DNA of 18,984 nt from a virus, in the IMG/VR virus record IMGVR_UViG_3300044857_000116. One strand, given 5' to 3'. Position numbers and translations under genes: made by a program. Below the pieces are notes generated by a model, which was given only the letters and a program-made list of their open reading frames with translations, did not search any database and was not told where the DNA came from. Below are positions 1-18,984 of this stretch, piece by piece. The stretch's first letter is position 1; each line of letters begins with the position of its first letter.

Positions 1-173
1 AAGGATAGAGAAGTGTGTGTGTGTGTTGTCTTTCCCCGTCTGTGTTTGTTATTCCTTTGTGTGTCAGTTTTTTTTCGCGTGTGTCGCCTTATTTTTTTTT
101 TGTTTGGTGTTTTGGTGTGTTGTGTGGTATGATTGTGTTGTTGGTTCGGAGTGGTTAATGTTAGGAGATTGAT
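1..173. repeat. Left inverted terminal repeat (ITR), presumed protein-primed replication origin
   Basis: In my hand alignment the reverse complement of 18813-18984 matches 1-173 base for base, except one homopolymer indel (T10 at 92-101 versus A9 on the right). It starts 5'-AAGGATAG and contains (GT)7 at 13-26, T8 at 68-75 and tandem TTTGGTGT x2 at 103-118. Confidence 0.95.
104..133 (+). promoter_or_regulatory. Candidate early promoter inside the left ITR (TTGGTG, 18-nt spacer, TGgTATGAT extended -10)
   Basis: TTGGTG lies at 104-109, TG at 125-126 and TATGAT at 128-133. It points inward, about 40 nt upstream of the first ATG (174). This is a motif reading only. Confidence 0.45.
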
Positions 174-344
174 ATGTTGAGTGAGCAAACGATTCGTGAT
201 TATGCTGAGGAATATATTGAGAATTCGGGTCAGTCTGTTGATGATTTTGATTTGGATGCTGTTATTTCTGTTCTTGATTTTCAAGCTAATACTGTTTTGG
301 GGGTGGATGATATGGATAGTTTTCCTAATCAGGTTTTTTGTTGA
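174..344 (+). CDS. Hypothetical early protein, 56 aa, strongly acidic (DNA-mimic candidate)
   Basis: Hand-translated and absent from the ORF track because it is under 60 aa: MLSEQTIRDYAEEYIENSGQSVDDFDLDAVISVLDFQANTVLGVDDMDSFPNQVFC, stop TGA at 342-344. AGGAG (163-167) sits 6 nt upstream of the ATG. It has 13 D/E against 1 R. It reads as a more plausible protein than the overlapping 181..369 ORF. Confidence 0.6.
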   Translation: MLSEQTIRDYAEEYIENSGQSVDDFDLDAVISVLDFQANTVLGVDDMDSFPNQVFC

Positions 345-999: not shown

Positions 1000-1392
1000 A
1001 TGCTTATTAAAGAATTTGAGTCTAAGTCTATGCGCGTTAGGCTGTTTGGTGATACGCGATTTGTTGAAGCGGGGTCGGCTAAGCAAGTCCCTTATTTTGT
1101 TGTTAATGTTACTGACTTGGATTATGTCAAGTATACGTCTGATAGATTTGACGATTTAGATAATGCGTTTATACGATTCAAGGACGAGGTAAGTATTCTG
1201 AAGTATGAGGATAATTTCACATCTTCTAAAAATGTGTATTTTTCTGCACTGGATAATGTTCAGGAAGCTGTGGATGCATGTTTTGTTGATATAATTCGAG
1301 ATGGCAACCATGCAGTGGTTAACACGTCTCTGTTATATAGGGCGATCTCTAAGGCTACTCAAGATGCCATAGATAAGGCGTTCAGCAAATGA
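1000..1392 (+). CDS. Hypothetical early protein, 130 aa
   Basis: ORF-track entry with GGAGG (985-989) 10 nt upstream of the ATG. I recognise no family. Confidence 0.7.
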   Translation: MLIKEFESKSMRVRLFGDTRFVEAGSAKQVPYFVVNVTDLDYVKYTSDRFDDLDNAFIRFKDEVSILKYEDNFTSSKNVYFSALDNVQEAVDACFVDIIRDGNHAVVNTSLLYRAISKATQDAIDKAFSK

Positions 1393-2741: not shown

Positions 2742-3191
2742 ATGGCAGGTAACGAAATTCAGTCAGTGAACGCGGAAACGGGCGAGATTCTCGACGAGCG
2801 CGAGCAGGTCGGCACACATCAGACGATCAGCACGATTCATCCGAAGACGTTTGACGAGCGAGCCAAGGCATATAATGCGCTGAGCAATGCCGCTTCGTTG
2901 GACGATATGGGCGATAAGGTCATTACGATCACGGGCATCATGCAACGGCCCGGAGTCGCCAAGGATCCTCAGTCGGGTGTTGAGCGTGATTGTCTTGATA
3001 CCACGTTGGTCGGCAAGGATGGGGAGGGGTATTTCTCCAAGTCGGGTGGTATCGCCAAGTCCGCTCAGCTGATCGTGGCCATGTTCGGAGGTAATTCCGA
3101 TCACTGGGAGAAGCCCATTAATGTACAGGTTGTAAAAACTATTCTGCCGAACAAGCAGACACTCAAGACCTTGAAGATCGTGATCAAGTAG
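2742..3191 (+). CDS. Putative single-stranded DNA-binding protein (phage SSB-like)
   Basis: ORF-track entry, 149 aa. The call rests on its position in the replication module and on the pattern ..AYNALSNA..LDDMGDKVITITGIM......DP.SG......TTLVGKDGEGYFSKSGGIAKS...IVAMFG.., which resembles small phage SSB families as I remember them. No search was done. Confidence 0.45.
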   Translation: MAGNEIQSVNAETGEILDEREQVGTHQTISTIHPKTFDERAKAYNALSNAASLDDMGDKVITITGIMQRPGVAKDPQSGVERDCLDTTLVGKDGEGYFSKSGGIAKSAQLIVAMFGGNSDHWEKPINVQVVKTILPNKQTLKTLKIVIK

Positions 3192-3300: not shown

Positions 3301-4302
3301 GTGGCTAAGAACTTTACCGAGAATTTCATCAAGGGCCTAAGTCCTGAAAAAATAGCGAGAATGCCGAAGTCCGATCTTAAGGAATTGGCAAAAGCCGTGT
3401 CGAAGATGACGGAAACGGTCATCAATTCCGCCATCAAGAACATGGGGAACACGACATACACGGAAGCACCCGTAATCAAACTCACGCCAAAAGAGCGCAT
3501 GTACGCTTCTCGAAAAAGCATTCCCGAGTCTGCCATAACAGTGCCATACGTGCATAGTCAAAAAGGTTTGAGACAGCAGAAGCGTCGCATAGACGCGGCC
3601 AAGGCGAAACAACGCCGTATCGCCAATTATGCTCAGGAGAATGCGAGCAAGCCGAGCGTACGACAGCAACGCTTGAATGAGATGAAAGGCTATACGTCCG
3701 CTAGTGGGGACGTGAGTTCACGTAGATACGGCATTCCCGCCTTGACGAACGCCATGTCTCAGAGAAACGTTCTTTCCGACCCCAAGATCGTCGCCAAGCT
3801 CCCCAAGGCCACGCTTGTCAATGAGATCAGTGACAGGATATCGGATGTCAAGGATATTTCGCCCAGAAAAAGGACGAACAACAAGCCCAAGAATCGTGGC
3901 AAGACCAAAAGCAAGGCACAACGACAGCGCCGACCGATGAGTGAAGAGTCGAGGGCGCGAAACTCGATGAAAGCGCATGGCGGCAAGCAATGGAACAGTC
4001 CTGTCCATGCAACCAAGAGAAAACCATCCTCGCCCATGTTCACAAATAACAGCGACATCAGCTATCGCAAGCTGGTATCCAAGAGCATACGCGAAGTGTT
4101 CGGGAAAGAGTATGCCAGAAAGTTCGATAAGATCAGCGCCCGTAAACAATTCAAGTTATTGAACAATACCGGCTTTCAGAAATTCATCGCACAACACGCG
4201 ATGTATGATTCGTATGAACGTAAGGCGGTGAAGTGGGAGTCGCCCGACGAGCGTGGGACATGGGGGAAGATAGAACAGCGCTATAATGATTACATCGAAT
4301 AG
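3301..4302 (+). CDS. Putative terminal protein (replication primer)
   Basis: 333-aa ORF with a GTG start after a G-rich tract, lying 13 nt upstream of the protein-primed polymerase gene, which is the conserved TP position. It is very basic (KRRIDAAKAKQRRI, KRTNNKPKNRGKTKSKAQRQRRP). I see no sequence similarity to phi29 TP, so the call is positional. Confidence 0.55.
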   Translation: MAKNFTENFIKGLSPEKIARMPKSDLKELAKAVSKMTETVINSAIKNMGNTTYTEAPVIKLTPKERMYASRKSIPESAITVPYVHSQKGLRQQKRRIDAAKAKQRRIANYAQENASKPSVRQQRLNEMKGYTSASGDVSSRRYGIPALTNAMSQRNVLSDPKIVAKLPKATLVNEISDRISDVKDISPRKRTNNKPKNRGKTKSKAQRQRRPMSEESRARNSMKAHGGKQWNSPVHATKRKPSSPMFTNNSDISYRKLVSKSIREVFGKEYARKFDKISARKQFKLLNNTGFQKFIAQHAMYDSYERKAVKWESPDERGTWGKIEQRYNDYIE

Positions 4303-4315
4303 CTAGGGGCCTACA

Positions 4316-5773
4316 TTGATAGTGGTGGCATATGATGGCGGTGATACGATGATCGTCAACGGCAACGCTGTACCGTATTCATTCAAGCGCATGGAATACC
4401 TATCGCTGGATGATGATGTGATAGTGTGGAATGACGGCATTGGTACGGCTATGGGCATGTTCAAGGATACCGTGAAAAACGGGTATCGTGAAGCGGATCG
4501 CGGGGAACGTTCATATTCGATACTGGTGTCCATGCAACGCATATTCTATATGTTGAAACTCAGGCCGATGCCGCGACGGTCGATAACGATACAGTCCGTG
4601 GTCAATATCGTATCGACGGCGAAACCGCGAGAGATCATGGAGACGTTCGGTGGCGGATCGCGTCTCAAAAGCGTGTGGCGTATGGCGGCGGAGTTCGAGC
4701 GTCTCGGTATTCGCGGCGTGACGGCGGGCGCTAGTGCCATATCCATAATTCGCAGGAACATGGGGTATGGAGAGTTCGCCAAGAATTTTCCGTGGGATGA
4801 GGCGTGGCTGTCGGATGTGCGCATGGCGTATCGTGGTGGTATCGTGTGGACTGACGGCACGAACGAGCGGGAGTACGGCGAGGGCGTATCATACGACAAC
4901 AATTCTCTGTATCCGTACTGTCTGACTCACTATCCCATGCCGTACGGCACGCCCGTGCATTATGAGGGTGAATATGAGCATGATGACGGTATGCCGTACC
5001 ATGTCGAGCGCATAACATTCAGGGCCGATCTAAAGGACGGGGGTATTCCGTTTCTTAGTGGCATGTTGTTTCCGTGGTTGCAGGAGGGCGATTACGTTAC
5101 CTCGACCAAAGGTTTCGTGACCATGTGGCTTACCGACATTGACATCATCAGTCTCACGGAGAACTATGACGTGTATATTTTGGAGCATGTCGAGGGATAT
5201 AAATTCGCGGCCAAGATGGGCATGTTTTCCCAGTATGTGTCGCATTGGGCGACGTTGAAAGCGTCCTCGCATGACGCGGAGCGCAAGGTGGCGAAGCTCA
5301 TGATAAACGCTCCGATAGGCAAATTCGGGGCGGTGCCGAGAGACAATAGACTCGATCCGAGTCTTGACGAGGACGGCGAGATACAATGGAATGTCAGGAG
5401 AAACGAACGGCGCAATCCCCTATGCTATCCGCCCGTGGCCATGTGGACGACGGCGTTGGCGCGATCCGTGCTGCTCAAAGCAATGCGAGACAATCGAGAC
5501 AGGCTGATATACGCCGACACTGACTCAGTGGTGCTGATCGGCAAGGAACCTCCCAATGGTATTACCGTGCACCCGACCAAACTCGGTTGCTGGAAGATCG
5601 AGCGTGAATTTACTTCCGCGAGAATTCTCGGATTGAGGAAATATGAGATGCAGACACCGGATGGCGTGCACATGTGTCTGTCGGGTGTTTCACGTGAAAC
5701 ACCGATACCATACGACATGTTTCACAAGGGCGTTCGTCACAACGACGACCGTGGCAATGAGTTTGTGCTATAG
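4316..5773 (+). CDS. Protein-primed family-B DNA polymerase (phi29 gp2-like)
   Basis: Motifs found: AYRGGIVW, SYDNNSLYP (motif A), KLMINAPIGKFG (motif B), LIYADTDS (motif C), LRKYE (KxY). It is colinear with my recollection of phi29 pol (AYRGGFTW..GEGMVFDVNSLYP..KLMLNSLYGKFA..YCDTDS). The start TTG 4316 is uncertain; GTG 4322 or 4325 are possible. Confidence 0.95.
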   Translation: MIVVAYDGGDTMIVNGNAVPYSFKRMEYLSLDDDVIVWNDGIGTAMGMFKDTVKNGYREADRGERSYSILVSMQRIFYMLKLRPMPRRSITIQSVVNIVSTAKPREIMETFGGGSRLKSVWRMAAEFERLGIRGVTAGASAISIIRRNMGYGEFAKNFPWDEAWLSDVRMAYRGGIVWTDGTNEREYGEGVSYDNNSLYPYCLTHYPMPYGTPVHYEGEYEHDDGMPYHVERITFRADLKDGGIPFLSGMLFPWLQEGDYVTSTKGFVTMWLTDIDIISLTENYDVYILEHVEGYKFAAKMGMFSQYVSHWATLKASSHDAERKVAKLMINAPIGKFGAVPRDNRLDPSLDEDGEIQWNVRRNERRNPLCYPPVAMWTTALARSVLLKAMRDNRDRLIYADTDSVVLIGKEPPNGITVHPTKLGCWKIEREFTSARILGLRKYEMQTPDGVHMCLSGVSRETPIPYDMFHKGVRHNDDRGNEFVL

Positions 5774-5949: not shown

Positions 5950-6306
5950 ATGGCGGACAACACTGAAAACATCGAGGACGAGGACGAGACCCCCAAGGAT
6001 GACGAGAACACGGGCGAGGATGAACAGCAGGAGGATGTCGAACCGGAGCGGAAAGAGCAGGAGTCAGACGAGGAGTCCGATCTCAGGCGGCAGGTCGATT
6101 CGCTGACCACTGATCTACAGGCTTGCCGCTCGACCATCGAGGAACTCGTCAAGACGGTTCAGGCCATGCAGGACAAGGCCGCCGACGACACTCTCGGCGG
6201 AGCGGACATTGAGGATTCGGAGGAACTCGGAGGAGACGACGGCGACGACGACCCCGATGGTGTAAACTTGACATTACAGGACATCATGACTCGAAAGGAT
6301 GATTAG
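5950..6306 (+). CDS. Scaffolding protein (phi29 gp7 position)
   Basis: 118 aa, extremely acidic (EDEDETPKDDENTGEDEQQEDVEPE...), with a helical heptad-like middle section. It lies immediately upstream of the capsid gene. Confidence 0.7.
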   Translation: MADNTENIEDEDETPKDDENTGEDEQQEDVEPERKEQESDEESDLRRQVDSLTTDLQACRSTIEELVKTVQAMQDKAADDTLGGADIEDSEELGGDDGDDDPDGVNLTLQDIMTRKDD

Positions 6307-6310
6307 TCTC

Positions 6311-8062
6311 ATGGCAGATAACGGCAAACAGGGCGACGAAAAACTGCGCCCACTCAACGAGCTTTCCAACGCACAGTTGCTGAACCTTGTGCGCAACGAG
6401 GCGTCCCCGATGTATCAGCAACGCATTGATTCCGCGACACAGGCCAACGTCAAGGAGACGATGGAGAACATGATGCGGTTCACTGCCACGCGAAACGAAT
6501 TTTACGATGTACTGGTGAATCGTATCGGCTCCACGTATGTCAATGCTTGGTCGTGGAACGATCCGCTTGCGATATTCAAGCGTAATACCATGCAGTACGG
6601 CGACACCTTGCAGGAGATTTCCGTGGGTATGCCCACGGCTCAGCTGTACGATCCGAACCAAGAGTATCTTGGACAGGATGCGTTCGGCACGTTCAAGGTC
6701 CCCATTAACTCGCTGTATCACAAGTTGAATCGACAGGTATTCTACCCGATAACCATCAATGACGCGCAGACCCGACAGGCGTTCACATCCGAGGGCGCGG
6801 GCATGGGACAACTGGTCACCCAGCTCATGCAGTCACAGCAGAACGCGGATCAGACGGACGAATTCCTGATGATCTGCTCGCTGTTCGCGGAATATGCGAG
6901 AATGGGCGGCTATTGGCGTGTCAATGTTCCCGACGTGGCGGATATGTCTTCCACTCAGGCCATGTCGCAGACGTTGCTCAGGTATATTCGCGCATGGATC
7001 GGTAATCTCAAATTCCCGTCCACGAAATACAATGCGCGGCACATGCCCATTTCGGTCAATGATCCGTCCGAACTTGTGTTGTTTACGACCCCTGAAGTCA
7101 AGTCGGGCTTGGATGTCATGGGCCTTGCTCAACTGTTCCATATGGAGCCTGCTGAGGTGGACGCGCAAATCATCGAACTGCCTGCTGAGAATTTTGGCAT
7201 GGATGGCGTTCAGGCGATTCTCACCACGAAATCGTTTCTGATGGTGTACGACAACATGCTGGAGAATACGTCACAGCGCAACAACGTGTCACTGGGAACG
7301 AACTTCTACCTGCATCATTGGCAGACGCTCAGCGTGTCCGGTTTCCAGCCCGCCATCCTGTTCTGGACAGGCCCCGCAACCGACGAGAGGATCGTTCGCC
7401 CGACCGGTGTCAAGGCGGCTACGCCCGTCATGCAACTCAAGCTCGGCAAGTACGGCGATCCCGATGTTGTTCCCACGTCCGCCGTTCGCGCGGAGCGCGT
7501 GCAGGTCTGGGCGGACATCTCCATTGCCAATGAGGATGAGGCATCATACACGGTCAAGGGCGTACAGTACTCTATCGGTACCACTGCCAAGACGCTGTCC
7601 GAGTTCACGCGGATCAACAACAACGGCGTACTGACCGTTGGCATGGACGAGCCGAACACCGAGATTCCGATTAACGCCACGGCAACCTATATCGATCCGG
7701 CGATACCCGAGGTAACCTCGGCGGTATCCGGTTCGTACAAGGTAAAGATCACCGGCGACGGCGTTATCGGCTTTGATCGAAGATTCGTAACCTCCATTAC
7801 GATCTTGGGAGCGCCCGACAACAAGACGGCAAAGGTCGGCGATACCGCCAAGCTCACCGTTCGAGGGAATATGTGGGGAAGCACGTCGGCGGACGCGGCA
7901 GTCGACCTTTCCGTGTTGAGCGCGTTTGAGTCCTCGGACGAAAGCGTGGCCACGGTTGACTCGGACGGCAACGTCAAGTACATCGCGGCGGGAAAGGTCA
8001 CGTTCAAGGCAACAGTGTTCATGAAGTCCAATAGCACCGACGAGATTACCGTCACTGCATGA
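6311..8062 (+). CDS. Major capsid protein with C-terminal Ig-like (Big_2-type) domain(s) (phi29 gp8-like)
   Basis: FLMVYDNMLENTSQRNNVSLGTNFYLHHWQTLSVSGF closely matches the recalled phi29 gp8 segment [37 protein letters not shown]. The C-terminus (..AKVGDTAKLTVRG....FESSDESVATVDSDGNVKYIAAGKVTFKATV..) has a Big_2 signature. An alternative start is ATG 6299. Confidence 0.92.
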   Translation: MADNGKQGDEKLRPLNELSNAQLLNLVRNEASPMYQQRIDSATQANVKETMENMMRFTATRNEFYDVLVNRIGSTYVNAWSWNDPLAIFKRNTMQYGDTLQEISVGMPTAQLYDPNQEYLGQDAFGTFKVPINSLYHKLNRQVFYPITINDAQTRQAFTSEGAGMGQLVTQLMQSQQNADQTDEFLMICSLFAEYARMGGYWRVNVPDVADMSSTQAMSQTLLRYIRAWIGNLKFPSTKYNARHMPISVNDPSELVLFTTPEVKSGLDVMGLAQLFHMEPAEVDAQIIELPAENFGMDGVQAILTTKSFLMVYDNMLENTSQRNNVSLGTNFYLHHWQTLSVSGFQPAILFWTGPATDERIVRPTGVKAATPVMQLKLGKYGDPDVVPTSAVRAERVQVWADISIANEDEASYTVKGVQYSIGTTAKTLSEFTRINNNGVLTVGMDEPNTEIPINATATYIDPAIPEVTSAVSGSYKVKITGDGVIGFDRRFVTSITILGAPDNKTAKVGDTAKLTVRGNMWGSTSADAAVDLSVLSAFESSDESVATVDSDGNVKYIAAGKVTFKATVFMKSNSTDEITVTA

Positions 8063-12729: not shown

Positions 12730-14403
12730 ATGGGAGCAGTATACAGCAAGACGGATAACTACGGACTCGACCTCTATGGCGATAAAGATCCCGCCGACCT
12801 CAGAGACGGGCATAACGCCAACATGCGTTCCATAGACGGCGTTATCAAGGAGCAATCAGACTCGATTTCCGAGGTACGGAAGACAGCGGAAGCTGCGGCT
12901 CCCCAAAACACCACATACAACAAAACTGAAATAGACGATTTTTTAACAAAAAAGGCAGATTCTGAGGGAACAGTTTTATCACTGAGTCTAAAGGCTGACA
13001 AGAAAACAATAGAAAAAACGGGCAATGTCGTGGCCCTAGGCATCGACAATTCAGGGGAAAACGATATATCCTCTAGCGTAAACGAATTGATACAAAGCGG
13101 CGAATATATGGGATTATACTTTCCTCAGGGTACGTATTTACTTTCTGATAAAATATCCGTCAATATCAAAACAGGAAGTTCATTTTCCATATTTGCATCA
13201 CCATCTGCAAGATTTATCGCACAGACTGACAATATGCCCGAAATGTTGTATGTAGAAGCGATAAACTGGACGGGAACGCGATTCGTGCTAGACGGCGGTA
13301 TTTGGGATGCTAATAGAAAAGCGTTGCGATGTATAAAAGTAAAAACAAACTATGACGCAATCATGAGAAATATGCAATTATTAAACGCCATAGATACGGC
13401 GCTAGACAATTCAGAAGCCACTTGCGTAATGGCTGACAATATAGACATCTGGGGCGGTAAATGGAATGATGATACAAGCAATAAGACACGAACGGGCATC
13501 GACAGCCATCATGATTCACAGTATAATCACATTAGAGTATTTTTCTGTGATATCGGGATAAAACATAGGGGGTATTCACAATTTTCTGACATATATATAT
13601 ATGGAGGTACTAATCAGTCAAACAGGATTACTGTTGGATTTAATTGCATGCAGTCTTCCAGCGAACTTCAAATACATGATATATATATGGATACTCTACA
13701 AACCTATTTTTCGGCTGATTCTGGAGTAGATCACTGCAATTATTTTGGGAATGGTCTATTTGCATATCTTAATAATACGGAAATATTGGAGGGTTCAAAC
13801 TGCACGATCTTCAAAACAGGCCCAACTACGCTACTTAATGTGTCTGGGATGAGGATAAGGATACCTATCCATTATATGTTTTCTGATTTTTACTTTCTCA
13901 ACCCATTTAGTATCAATTTACTAAACAGCAGAGAGATTAATTTTTCCAATATTCTGGACATTAATCACCTATTGAATTCAAACAATATGGCAACATATCA
14001 CAATTGGACGAAAATATCAGACGGTACTCCAATAACAAGCGGACAATGTATTAAAATATGCTGCATTCCAGCATCTAATCAAATACATAAAATTAAAATC
14101 ACAAACTCATATCACTCCAGAGAATTTGAAATAATGGCAGACAAAAACTCAGGTGGCAGAGTTGTTTCAGAAAGGGCATTATTTAATGGTGACTCGATAG
14201 AGTTTTATTCCAAGATTTCCTCAGATAACTCTACTAGAGAAATTTATCTCTCAAACGACGGTACAAGCACGTTTGCAGATTCAACTTTCTTCATCGAATT
14301 TACCGAAAGTGCAGTTTTTAATCAAGGGGCGTACTCTGATAAAGTAGGGTCAGTCAATGTTCCTACAGCAAAAACATCGGACATGACAGTAATGAGTAAA
14401 TAA
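12730..14403 (+). CDS. Tail appendage / fibre, probable receptor-binding or depolymerase protein with beta-helix domain (phi29 gp12 position)
   Basis: 557 aa. It has an N-terminal anchor motif. The segment GENDISSSVNELIQSGEYMGLYFPQGTYLLSDKISV resembles the start of pectate-lyase-superfamily beta-helix domains. It occupies the gp12 position between the collar and the tail lysin. Confidence 0.75.
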   Translation: MGAVYSKTDNYGLDLYGDKDPADLRDGHNANMRSIDGVIKEQSDSISEVRKTAEAAAPQNTTYNKTEIDDFLTKKADSEGTVLSLSLKADKKTIEKTGNVVALGIDNSGENDISSSVNELIQSGEYMGLYFPQGTYLLSDKISVNIKTGSSFSIFASPSARFIAQTDNMPEMLYVEAINWTGTRFVLDGGIWDANRKALRCIKVKTNYDAIMRNMQLLNAIDTALDNSEATCVMADNIDIWGGKWNDDTSNKTRTGIDSHHDSQYNHIRVFFCDIGIKHRGYSQFSDIYIYGGTNQSNRITVGFNCMQSSSELQIHDIYMDTLQTYFSADSGVDHCNYFGNGLFAYLNNTEILEGSNCTIFKTGPTTLLNVSGMRIRIPIHYMFSDFYFLNPFSINLLNSREINFSNILDINHLLNSNNMATYHNWTKISDGTPITSGQCIKICCIPASNQIHKIKITNSYHSREFEIMADKNSGGRVVSERALFNGDSIEFYSKISSDNSTREIYLSNDGTSTFADSTFFIEFTESAVFNQGAYSDKVGSVNVPTAKTSDMTVMSK

Positions 14404-15695
14404 TGTCAAATCAAAGCATGTATGCCATGTACGTTATAGGAAAGGTAGAAAGCAATCACAATTGGGCTTCCGTGAACACCACTGATCCCATAACGTTCGG
14501 GATGATGCAATGGTTCGGCACGAGAGCCTATGGTCTTCTGGTGCTATGCTCTCAGAGGGATGCAGAGGGGTGGGCGGCATTCAAGGCCGCCGCCCCCGCA
14601 CTCGGCGCGCACGTCGAGAACAACGACGTGAATTGGCCCACATATTACACGAACGCGGCAGAGGAGAACGCTTGGAGACAGTGGGCCACTCGTGATCTCA
14701 ACCACGCGGCACAACAGGAGCAATGGGAGACGGATTATGTCACGTATTCCAAACAGTGCGACAGTATCGGTATTCCATCAGAAAACATGCAGGTACGCAT
14801 ACTGTTTATGACAGCATACCATCAGGGGCCAAAATACGCTCTGAGAGTGATACGATCCGTAGGCGTTATGAGCACGTTGGATAGATTGCATGACGGATTG
14901 TTGGCGGACGGAGTATTGGGAAGATACCGCAACCGCTACAATACGGCATACGATCTGCTGAAAACATGGGATGGACAGAGCGCACCACCCGACTTCGGGC
15001 AGTCAGGCGGAGGAGAAACTCAACCCGACCACGGCGGAGACACCGCCCCCTCGGTACAGCCGACACCCGACAAGCCGGTCATGGTTACCGTGTTCGGGAA
15101 TGATCTCGTATACAACGAGAATGGCACTAAAAAGCGTCTATACAAAACGTCCGCACAATCATGGCAGGGCGGCACGATAACAGGGCAGACCATAGCAGGC
15201 GGAGGAACAGGCGGCGGACAGAGCACAGGAGGAGGCGACAGTAGCGGCAACGCTTCTGGGGATGCGGCCAAAGTGCTTAAATGGATCAGTGACCGCATGG
15301 GAAAATTCAACTATTCACAAGGGCCGGGCCGACTCAACCCCGACGCGACAGGATACACGGACTGTTCGGGATTGATATGGTCTGCATACCATTTCGCCAT
15401 AGGCAAAGACATAGGGACATGGACGGGAACGGAACAGTCCCTAGGCACCGAAGTTGCCAACTCGTCCACAAGCTCCGTTGCAGACGCTATAGCCAAGGTC
15501 AAGGCGGCCGATATTCTCGTCATAGACTGGGCACGTAATGGCGTGACTGGGGACTATGACCATGAGGAAATATTCACCGGAGATGGAAGCGGCCACCTAT
15601 ATTCACACGGCGGCCCCGGCAAGGGGCCATCAGAACGACAGTTCACCGATCAAGCCCCCGCAATGGTACGCTGGAAGATACGGAGACACTTATAG
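14403..15695 (+). CDS. Tail-associated peptidoglycan hydrolase (gp13 position): lysozyme-like N-domain, Gly-rich linker, NlpC/P60-type C-domain
   Basis: The N-terminus has GKVESNHNW...FGMMQWF (compare recalled gp13 GNMQSEST..GLVQWT). The linker is GGGTGGGQSTGGGDSSG. The C-terminus has GYTDCSGLIWSAY...HEEIF...SHGG, a Cys/His peptidase pattern. The ATG overlaps the upstream TAA (TAATG). Confidence 0.8.
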   Translation: MSNQSMYAMYVIGKVESNHNWASVNTTDPITFGMMQWFGTRAYGLLVLCSQRDAEGWAAFKAAAPALGAHVENNDVNWPTYYTNAAEENAWRQWATRDLNHAAQQEQWETDYVTYSKQCDSIGIPSENMQVRILFMTAYHQGPKYALRVIRSVGVMSTLDRLHDGLLADGVLGRYRNRYNTAYDLLKTWDGQSAPPDFGQSGGGETQPDHGGDTAPSVQPTPDKPVMVTVFGNDLVYNENGTKKRLYKTSAQSWQGGTITGQTIAGGGTGGGQSTGGGDSSGNASGDAAKVLKWISDRMGKFNYSQGPGRLNPDATGYTDCSGLIWSAYHFAIGKDIGTWTGTEQSLGTEVANSSTSSVADAIAKVKAADILVIDWARNGVTGDYDHEEIFTGDGSGHLYSHGGPGKGPSERQFTDQAPAMVRWKIRRHL

Positions 15696-18262: not shown

Positions 18263-18811
18263 CTATTGCACCGAACGCATAGGCACAAGAAGCACTGTTG
18301 TCTTCAGACAACTAACAGTGAACCTCAACGCCTTAAAATTGGGACTCTGTTTGTTGACGCTCATCACCATCGGTACGGGTTTTTTCATGCCCTTGTCATC
18401 AAGGATTTCACATACTGTGATAAGAAGTTCGGGATTTACCACAATGAGATTCGAAAATCCATTCAAGGATATCCTACTATCATCACCATCGCCATAGTTC
18501 GATTCATCGAACAGTCTGTCCAAGTTAGGATAGCTACTTTTGGCTTCATGCCAAGGCATTATAGACCAATCAATGTCAATATTTGACCTCGCATTTCTAA
18601 CAAAAAACTCCAAGTCCTCAATCGTAAGATACTGATTATCCTTGATTCCGTCGAGCTTCTGTTCAATCTTCACAGCGCTAAATCTATCGGTAGCATAGAT
18701 AAAACCATTACAATACCATACATTCACAAGGATGTCATCAGGCATATGCCTACATTTCTTCTCATTCTTTAAAACCTTAACAATACCACGAATATTATTC
18801 TTCTTCATCAT
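18263..18811 (-). CDS. Right-end early protein, 182 aa, with DNA polymerase III beta-clamp-like motifs (tentative)
   Basis: This is the frame of track ORF 18263..18853. The start ATG at 18811 (MMKKNNIRG...) lies 7 nt after the ITR AGGAG. Motifs in clamp order: YATDRFSAV (compare ATDGHRLAV), SSYPNLDRLF (compare GRFPDYRRVLP), VVNPELLITVCEIL, and C-terminal TTVLLVPMRSVQ (compare AYVVMPMRL). Confidence 0.75.
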   Translation of the reverse strand: MMKKNNIRGIVKVLKNEKKCRHMPDDILVNVWYCNGFIYATDRFSAVKIEQKLDGIKDNQYLTIEDLEFFVRNARSNIDIDWSIMPWHEAKSSYPNLDRLFDESNYGDGDDSRISLNGFSNLIVVNPELLITVCEILDDKGMKKPVPMVMSVNKQSPNFKALRFTVSCLKTTVLLVPMRSVQ

Positions 18812-18812
18812 A

Positions 18813-18984
18813 ATCAATCTCCTAACATTAACCACTCCGAACCAACAACACAATCATACCACACAACACACCAAAACACCAAACAAAAAAAAATAAGGCG
18901 ACACACGCGAAAAAAAACTGACACACAAAGGAATAACAAACACAGACGGGGAAAGACAACACACACACACACTTCTCTATCCTT
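18813..18984. repeat. Right inverted terminal repeat (ITR)
   Basis: This is the reverse complement of 1-173, with one fewer base in the homopolymer (A9 at 18885-18893). Confidence 0.95.
18853..18882 (-). promoter_or_regulatory. Candidate early promoter inside the right ITR (mirror copy of 104-133)
   Basis: The complement of TATGAT lies at 18853-18858 and the complement of TTGGTG at 18877-18882. The sequence is identical to the left copy. Confidence 0.45.

Follow-up and report, generated by a model that had tools for sequence, protein, structure and literature searches.

A phi29-type DNA polymerase with an apparently vestigial exonuclease domain as the only replicase of a small phage genome

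The DNA polymerase of phage phi29 is the textbook high-fidelity, strand-displacing replicase, and it is used in whole-genome amplification and in sequencing chemistries with engineered versions that lack the 3'-5' exonuclease. In phi29 the double mutation D12A/D66A abolishes proofreading and allows mismatches to be extended; metal-ligand mutants are impaired in strand displacement; and the exonuclease domain forms, with TPR2 and the palm, the tunnel for the downstream template, so that mutations in this domain affect strand displacement (PMC6351526). In other polymerases, namely Pol alpha, Pol zeta, archaeal PolB2/G2 and phage divPolA1, the exonuclease fold has been kept and its catalytic motifs lost (PMC7544198, PMC11348598). 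No description of exonuclease loss in phi29-like, protein-primed or Bifidobacterium phage polymerases was found in the open-access papers searched, among them a 2024 review of phi29-like phages and articles in which these Bifidobacterium phages are mentioned. Here the analysis was centred on the polymerase gene of the IMG/VR record IMGVR_UViG_3300044857_000116, the window being the whole 18,984-bp stretch of DNA, a complete linear phi29-like phage genome bounded by inverted terminal repeats (ITRs), each about 175 bp long. The open reading frame (ORF) at 4316–5773 encodes the only DNA polymerase of this genome. From the alignments and models below, we consider it likely that this enzyme is a complete polymerase with a decayed, non-catalytic N-terminal domain (N-domain) of about 132 residues and no intrinsic proofreading, the remnant being kept structurally; the phage would then very probably copy its genome without error correction.

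The polymerisation half of the protein was readily matched to phi29. In a phmmer search of PDB, residues 130–443 aligned with phi29 183–500 (E 6.7e-57, about 35% identity), and TPR1 and TPR2, the insertions specific to protein-primed family-B polymerases (pPolB), are both present since this alignment runs unbroken; Pfam DNA_pol_B_2 covered residues 136–404 only, with 116.4 bits against a cut-off of 25.8, and sequence searches matched this half of the protein only. An AlphaFold2 model of the full-length enzyme (predicted local distance difference test (pLDDT) 93.4, predicted template-modelling score (pTM) 0.90) gave phi29 polymerase chains as all of its best Foldseek matches (about 565 aligned columns, E 1e-42, TMq 0.84). 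The columns of motifs A and C are invariant across the homologues, the arginine of Tx2GR is present, and the interdomain linker holds the counterpart of phi29 T189, whose role has been described (PMC6351526). Together these comparisons show the polymerisation domain to be complete as judged from its sequence, in agreement with the first-pass annotation, which had found this half to align convincingly with phi29 and had placed AYRGG at residue 171 against about residue 225 in phi29 (171–175 and 225–229 in our alignment). The ORF and the peptides quoted in that annotation are all in the sequence as given there.

In the N-domain, about 54 residues are missing overall relative to phi29. The DxE, Nx2-3(F/Y)D and Yx3D motifs of a DEDDy exonuclease, together with the lysine of Kx2h, all fail in the window enzyme, and they were compared across a group of 19 full-length relatives of 445–496 amino acids (aa) made up of profile-search matches and cultured phages (referred to below as the short clade). 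Specifically, multiple alignment and the strand order of the model placed D7-G8-G9 opposite D12-F13-E14 of Exo I, which is the DxE-to-DxG change read earlier from the sequence; D7 would be the one possible remaining carboxylate, and it is Gly in the closest relatives, BadAargau2 and BadAztec1. No short-clade member has the Exo I Glu, and the Exo I Asp is not conserved. The Exo II Asp, which the hand alignment had put opposite a Gly, is indeed lost, but its position is taken by T44, with D40/G41 aligned by hhalign to H61/N62, and no acid is conserved at Exo II across the short clade. There is a second shortening between Exo I and Exo II, and the phi29 S122/L123 strand corresponds to SVVNIV. At ETFGGG, a deletion of 5+22 residues takes out K143, Y148 and Y165, and D169 is aligned by hhalign with R116. 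The Exo III region had been described as falling in a deletion of about 25 residues; this holds for the catalytic start and the preceding loop, which are gone, but not for the Exo III helix, which is retained at residues 116–129 of the model. Three of the four exonuclease carboxylates are missing, as first suggested, and intact DxE, NxxxD and YxxxD motifs were not recovered by profile alignment or by comparison with more than 200 homologues, with two AlphaFold models in agreement. We conclude that a two-metal DEDDy site would be unable to form in the window enzyme.

The same region could nevertheless be identified as an exonuclease domain. Using hhalign, the profile of the 19 short-clade N-termini matched a profile of about 100 exonuclease domains with intact motifs (exo-intact) at 97% (E 8.5e-11), with window residues 33–139 corresponding to phi29 54–192, and a smaller 10-sequence profile of N-termini matched at 96%. 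As controls, 20 column-shuffled profiles gave probabilities no higher than 6.4%, and a decoy, the polymerase domain, gave 0.2%. An AlphaFold model of the N-domain alone, made from six short-clade N-termini only, had a pLDDT of 79, and the order of elements was the same in both AlphaFold models (three strands, helix, strand, helix, three strands, two helices), so that the persistence of the surrounding fold noted in the first-pass annotation was upheld. By profile and model, residues 1–132 are genuinely homologous to the exonuclease domain, though degenerate.

The exonuclease positions (D, E, D, K, Y and D) are kept in 104–113 of the 114 homologues outside the short clade, the non-keepers being almost all N-terminally truncated fragments, with one complete exception, P0087, that has degenerate motifs, whereas the catalytic residues are missing in 19/19 members of the short clade. 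Searching 1.84 billion representative proteins with the N-domain profile gave 22 matches, nearly all of them polymerases of 454–496 aa or their fragments and none of them an exo-intact enzyme. The members from cultured lytic phages are those of BadAargau2, BadAztec1/2/4, BD811P1-3 and BP1, which infect Bifidobacterium asteroides, B. dentium and B. pseudocatenulatum; the short enzyme is the only polymerase of these isolates and must therefore be a working replicase. The 19 members were monophyletic in 60/60 bootstraps of a tree made from the polymerase domain only (all trees were neighbour-joining), and the predicted exonuclease loss is an ancient character of the clade. The window polymerase has its best protein match at 41% identity and the window showed no nucleotide similarity to GenBank phages, and the phage was therefore taken as a new lineage within a known group; from sequence divergence, we estimate that the window represents a lineage separate from these Bifidobacterium phages at genus level or above.

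Within the short clade, the two halves of the protein have diverged at different rates. Columns conserved at 70% or more make up 4/132 of the N-domain against 106/353 of the polymerase domain, and identity was 0.18 in the N-domain against 0.39 in the polymerase domain, compared with 0.40 and 0.42 in exo-intact enzymes of the same divergence. Between the close relatives BadAargau2 and BadAztec1, the N-domain is as constrained as the polymerase domain (values below), and its length varies little among clade members. Such a pattern would be expected if the domain had lost catalysis and kept a lineage-specific structural or binding role. The putative terminal protein is also fast-diverging, with 30% identity over 193 aa to gp17 of BadAargau2, the equivalent Badaztecvirus ORF, no similarity to the phi29 terminal protein and no Pfam or PHROG match; this fits co-evolution with the N-domain without demonstrating it.

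Three features not described in the first-pass annotation accompany the change: the shortening between Exo I and Exo II, a truncated C-terminal thumb and the loss of the motif-B Tyr (Kx3NSxYG), a residue invariant in family B, whose position is occupied by V, I, T or A in the 19 short-clade members. In the alignment this Tyr is replaced in 82/82 exo-degenerate enzymes and kept in 64/65 intact ones. An alignment-free motif scan gave the same split, with the motif-B Tyr in 132 of the 137 proteins that have Exo I, II and III and in 0/48 of those without any Exo motif. In phi29, the corresponding mutation Y390S results in loss of discrimination against dA opposite 8-oxoguanine (PMC1976434). The thumb lacks the returning strand (568–575) and the conserved K555 stretch; the roles of the thumb-tip residues in phi29 are given in PMC1475753. 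An exo-intact enzyme, P0188, which is the sister group of the second degenerate clade described below, has all the Exo motifs and a Cys at the motif-B Tyr position, and hints that loss of this Tyr can precede loss of the exonuclease site. As a separate observation, the BD811P/BP1 subgroup (L002 1405–2742, L003 1315–2730, P0005 and P0126) has Asn at the K498 position and a motif C of the form YxNTDG, with the first Asp replaced by Asn; primer-independent PolBs likewise are without the first motif C Asp and are still active (PMC7544198).

P0087 (691 aa; L008 1907–3982), the odd match on a 14.6-kb phi29-like contig, led to a second exo-degenerate group (clade d) of 63 protein clusters of 590–695 aa from uncultured phi29-like phages of about 13–15 kb, with degenerate Exo I, II and III (P0139–P0252). 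Its N-domain profile matched the exo-intact profile at 98% (E 1e-13) and the short-clade profile at 97.7%, with a deletion at the same K143–Y165 loop, and the motif-B Tyr is replaced mostly by Ser and also by Ile, Ala, Thr or Leu. At E <1e-30, no GenBank phage relative was found beyond a polymerase-domain match (residues 199–529) to Bacillus phage Gxv1. According to its label, one member comes from a metagenome-assembled genome of Aeriscardovia (Bifidobacteriaceae). The two degenerate clades were separate in the tree, each adjoining exo-intact sequences, with short deep branches, and P0087 grouped with the short clade in 35/60 bootstraps; one or two exonuclease losses are therefore both possible. 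A protein-primed family-B polymerase deficient in proofreading, which the first-pass annotation had called unusual, would not be a one-off, as two clades show the trait.

Taken together, these data suggest a mode of replication in which synthesis would start on a terminal protein at the 175-bp terminal repeats and the 19-kb genome would be copied processively with strand displacement, accuracy coming from base selection alone. The remnant domain would be retained as part of the template tunnel with TPR2 and the palm and probably also as part of the surface that binds the terminal protein and DNA. Loss of the motif-B Tyr, replacement of K498 by Arg and the clipped thumb tip may belong to the same remodelling, whereby the primer end would no longer be moved to an editing site. 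Several points weigh against this reading. The Exo I segment was aligned weakly and without hhalign confidence, the N-terminal 30 residues align poorly, and the geometry of the former active site rests on alignments. The model of the isolated N-domain matched nothing significantly in PDB (best E 0.2, RNase HI about 0.7), and its matches in BFVD were modest, although the top ones were N-terminal parts of protein-primed polymerases, including a 189-aa polymerase fragment of Streptococcus phage SOCP (E 4.7e-4, TMq 0.62), BadAztec1 and Mycoplasma phage P1. Since mutation of the metal ligands impairs strand displacement in phi29, enzymes without these residues must displace DNA by other means. Finally, the ratio of nonsynonymous to synonymous substitution rates (dN/dS) was taken between BadAargau2 and BadAztec1, genomes of a sister genus. 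It came to 0.083 in the N-domain and 0.070 in the polymerase domain (83% and 82% aa identity) and is approximate, dS being near saturation (1.3–1.8). A non-catalytic reason for keeping the N-domain, as proposed in the first-pass annotation, is in line with this purifying selection (dN/dS 0.08).

A broader interpretation, which we put forward tentatively and consider less likely than not, is that proofreading loss is no accident but an evolved replication strategy of small phi29-like phages of gut Actinomycetota and their relatives. The exonuclease site would have been lost once or twice, each time together with the motif-B Tyr that checks the nascent pair (82/82 against 1/65), the parts of the thumb that shift the primer end into the editing site would have been lost as well, and the replicase would tolerate and extend its own mismatches rather than stall. 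If so, the per-genome mutation rates of these double-stranded DNA phages may be nearer to those of RNA and single-stranded DNA viruses, and higher mutation could help in matching host receptors and defences.

Proofreading might instead be supplied in trans by a 3'-5' exonuclease of the host or by a phage protein that has escaped recognition, for which the N-domain would be no more than a docking scaffold. Four early ORFs of the window (1000–1392, 1755–2393, 2397–2681 and 18263–18853 on the minus strand) have no detectable family, and a docking role could explain the purifying selection on the N-domain. However, a hidden Markov model of the exonuclease domain found no match in any of the six frames (best E 0.62, to the polymerase ORF itself), Pfam and PHROG scans of the main ORFs showed no exonuclease elsewhere in the genome, and in phi29-type replication one binding event is followed by processive synthesis (PMC6351526), which leaves little room for a separate editor; we regard editing in trans as improbable. 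Slightly less probable again is an N-domain that is still a nuclease or phosphoesterase with rearranged, non-canonical catalytic residues. The fold is retained, N97 is invariant, D or E is found at 74% at each of columns 15 and 109, and D7 may occupy the position of D12; set against this, no acidic column of the N-domain is invariant, the window enzyme itself has Asn at column 15, the residue equivalent to D7 varies among relatives as noted above, the K143/Y165 loop is deleted, and 3% conserved columns are ill-suited to a maintained active site. Least credible of all is an artefact (a wrong start, a frameshift, mis-assembly, a defective phage or poor alignment of a divergent functional domain), for which the poorly aligned N-terminus and the non-ATG start codon could be cited, since 19 divergent sequences of independent origin, some of them from cultured phages, have the same architecture, no more than 9 nucleotides (nt) of open frame lie upstream of the start, the motif scan needs no alignment, and exo-intact homologues at similar divergence keep every motif.

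The polymerase frame opens at 4307, directly after the stop codon of the upstream gene (4304–4306), and an AGGGG ribosome-binding site is located at 4305–4309. An upstream start or a frameshift supplying the missing exonuclease part, for which a search had been advised in the first-pass annotation, was rejected because of this stop codon and because homology extends over the entire N-domain. In the public gene call, the start is GTG 4322 (483 aa). A start at ATG 4349 is possible and was judged less likely, as the preceding hydrophobic strand and 'DG' are kept in most members of the clade and also upstream of the annotated Badaztecvirus starts. The polymerases of BadAargau2 (L001 4231–4257) and BadAztec1 (L007 1504–1530) have annotated starts that probably lie 9 codons too far downstream: an in-frame peptide ahead of them, VIVYVG(D/G).., begins at a GTG and aligns with IVVAYDGG of the window. 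The features of the polymerase gene and of the replication region are listed in Table 1.

Table 1. Coordinates of the polymerase, its motifs and associated replication features in the window.
Feature	Coordinates	Strand	Remarks
Left inverted terminal repeat	1..175	.	Starts AAGGATAG
Phi29-type single-stranded-DNA-binding protein	2742..3191	+	Pfam Phi29_Phage_SSB E 6e-10; PHROG 6243
Putative terminal protein, 333 aa, basic	3301..4302	+	Assigned by position only
Phi29-type DNA polymerase, 485 aa	4316..5773	+	Pfam DNA_pol_B_2, phi29 match, AlphaFold2 model
Predicted vestigial 3'-5' exonuclease domain, residues 1-132	4316..4711	+	Strand/helix order kept, catalytic residues lost
Exo I remnant IVVAYDGGDT, residues 2-11	4319..4348	+	D7 may equal phi29 D12; G9 replaces E14
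Exo II remnant VIVWNDGIGTAMG, residues 35-47	4418..4456	+	H61/N62/D66 of phi29 equal D40/G41/T44
(S/T)Lx2h strand remnant SITIQSVVNIVS, residues 89-100	4580..4615	+	N97 alone is invariant in this domain throughout the clade
Deletion junction ETFGGG, then retained Exo III helix SRLKSVWRMAAEFERLG	4640..4708	+	hhalign and model
Interdomain linker GVTAGASA	4715..4738	+	T136 equals phi29 T189, invariant in all homologues
YxGG motif AYRGG, residues 171-175	4826..4840	+	Phi29 225-229, 54-residue shortfall
Motif A YDNNSLYP, residues 193-200	4892..4915	+	Intact; D194 metal ligand, Y199 steric gate
Motif B KLMINAPIGKF	5294..5326	+	K327, N331, G335 kept; phi29 Y390 is Ile334
TPR2-equivalent beta-hairpin insertion, residues 347-367	5354..5416	+	Unbroken alignment; model strands 345-350, 356-361
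Motif C IYADTDS, residues 398-404	5507..5527	+	Intact; D401, D403
KxY motif as RKY	5633..5647	+	R441 replaces phi29 K498
Truncated thumb tip	5735..5770	+	Protein ends at phi29 L567 equivalent
Right inverted terminal repeat	18810..18984	.	Begins with AAGGATAG, as the left repeat does

The rest of the genome is phi29-like in content, with a single-stranded-DNA-binding protein, major capsid protein, tail knob, connector, packaging ATPase, holin and endolysin, and it is syntenic with Bifidobacterium phage BadAargau2 (genus Badaztecvirus, honeybee gut). The first 100 nt of the two ITRs are identical, after which they differ by one T in a T10/T9 run; the ITRs would serve as the replication origin for protein priming. 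Each ITR ends in AGGAGATTGA(T)TATG, so that the first gene facing inwards from either genome end, namely the ORF at 174–344 (plus strand) and the ORF starting near 18811 (minus strand), is opened by the same ribosome-binding site and ATG. The ATG near 18811 is probably the start of the 196-aa ORF at 18263–18853 (minus strand) at the right end, which showed a weak match to PHROG 6615 'DNA polymerase' (E 1.5e-3, residues 41–83) and no match in Pfam, PDB or GenBank phages; its YATDRFSAV stretch may resemble the beta clamp motif ATDGHRLA. PDB and phage searches with this ORF and with ORF 1755–2393 were empty. The left end (1–1500) has a G+C content (GC) of 0.39–0.41, a very strong GC skew (up to 0.50), GT-rich and T-rich runs, and small ORFs only. 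The phi29-type major capsid protein (6299–8062) carries a C-terminal Big_2 immunoglobulin-like domain (residues 497–573), as does gp8 of phi29. The GC is 0.36–0.37 at 13000–14500, inside ORF 12730–14403, against about 0.52 in the rest of the genome, which suggests a recently acquired or mosaic host-recognition module; this 557-aa ORF has a weak pectate-lyase-like match and is probably a tail spike or receptor-binding protein.

If the window enzyme and its relatives do lack intrinsic proofreading, an entire natural lineage, cultured lytic Bifidobacterium phages among them, may rely on an exo-minus enzyme as its sole replicase, and a tailed double-stranded DNA phage could live without proofreading. 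This raises the questions of what level of fidelity a DNA genome of 19 kb requires, what non-catalytic roles the exonuclease domain may have, for example in the template tunnel or in contact with the terminal protein, and how strands are displaced without the carboxylates. The link between exonuclease loss and motif-B Tyr loss provides a specific hypothesis on the coupling of insertion checking and editing in family-B polymerases. In practical terms, exo-minus strand-displacing polymerases whose substrate tolerance is altered could be developed from these natural enzymes.

Compared with phi29 polymerase (gp2; PDB 1XHX, 2EX3 and 2PYJ), the window enzyme has the same motifs A and C, YxGG, TPR1/TPR2 and fold (TMq 0.84), and the genome has the same layout, with ITRs, a single-stranded-DNA-binding protein, a putative terminal protein directly upstream of the polymerase, a phi29-type capsid, a connector and a packaging ATPase. 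It differs in an N-domain of 132 residues against 189 in phi29, in the absence of E14, H61, N62, D66, K143, Y165 and D169, in the replacement of Tyr390 by Ile and of K498 by Arg, in a thumb that ends at the L567 equivalent, and in ITRs of about 175 bp against 6 bp. The polymerases of BadAargau2, BadAztec1/2/4, BD811P1-3 and BP1 share the length (445–480 aa), the missing exonuclease residues, the non-Tyr motif B and the clipped C-terminus; in syntenic genomes, they are 34–41% identical to the window enzyme overall and 13–29% in the N-domain, and their records name the gene only 'DNA polymerase' or 'hypothetical protein'. The P0087-type polymerases likewise have degenerate Exo motifs, the K143–Y165 loop deletion and a replaced motif-B Tyr, but are 590–695 aa long, with an N-domain of about 170 aa, C-terminal extensions and K498 kept.

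The best functional analogue would be the engineered phi29 D12A/D66A enzyme, which, like the state proposed for the window enzyme, is without proofreading and active as a polymerase, misincorporating and extending mismatches (PMC6351526). It is, however, a laboratory point mutant with an otherwise intact domain and reduced strand displacement, whereas the change in the window enzyme would be natural and ancient, with deletions and compensating changes. Pol alpha, Pol zeta, PolB2/G2 and divPolA1 are RNA- or DNA-primed or belong to family A, and usually work beside a proofreading replicase, whereas the window enzyme would be protein-primed and is the sole polymerase of its genome. Inactivated exonuclease domains being known elsewhere, what appears to be new here is a protein-primed sole replicase in which a vestigial exonuclease domain goes with a tightly linked loss of the motif-B Tyr.

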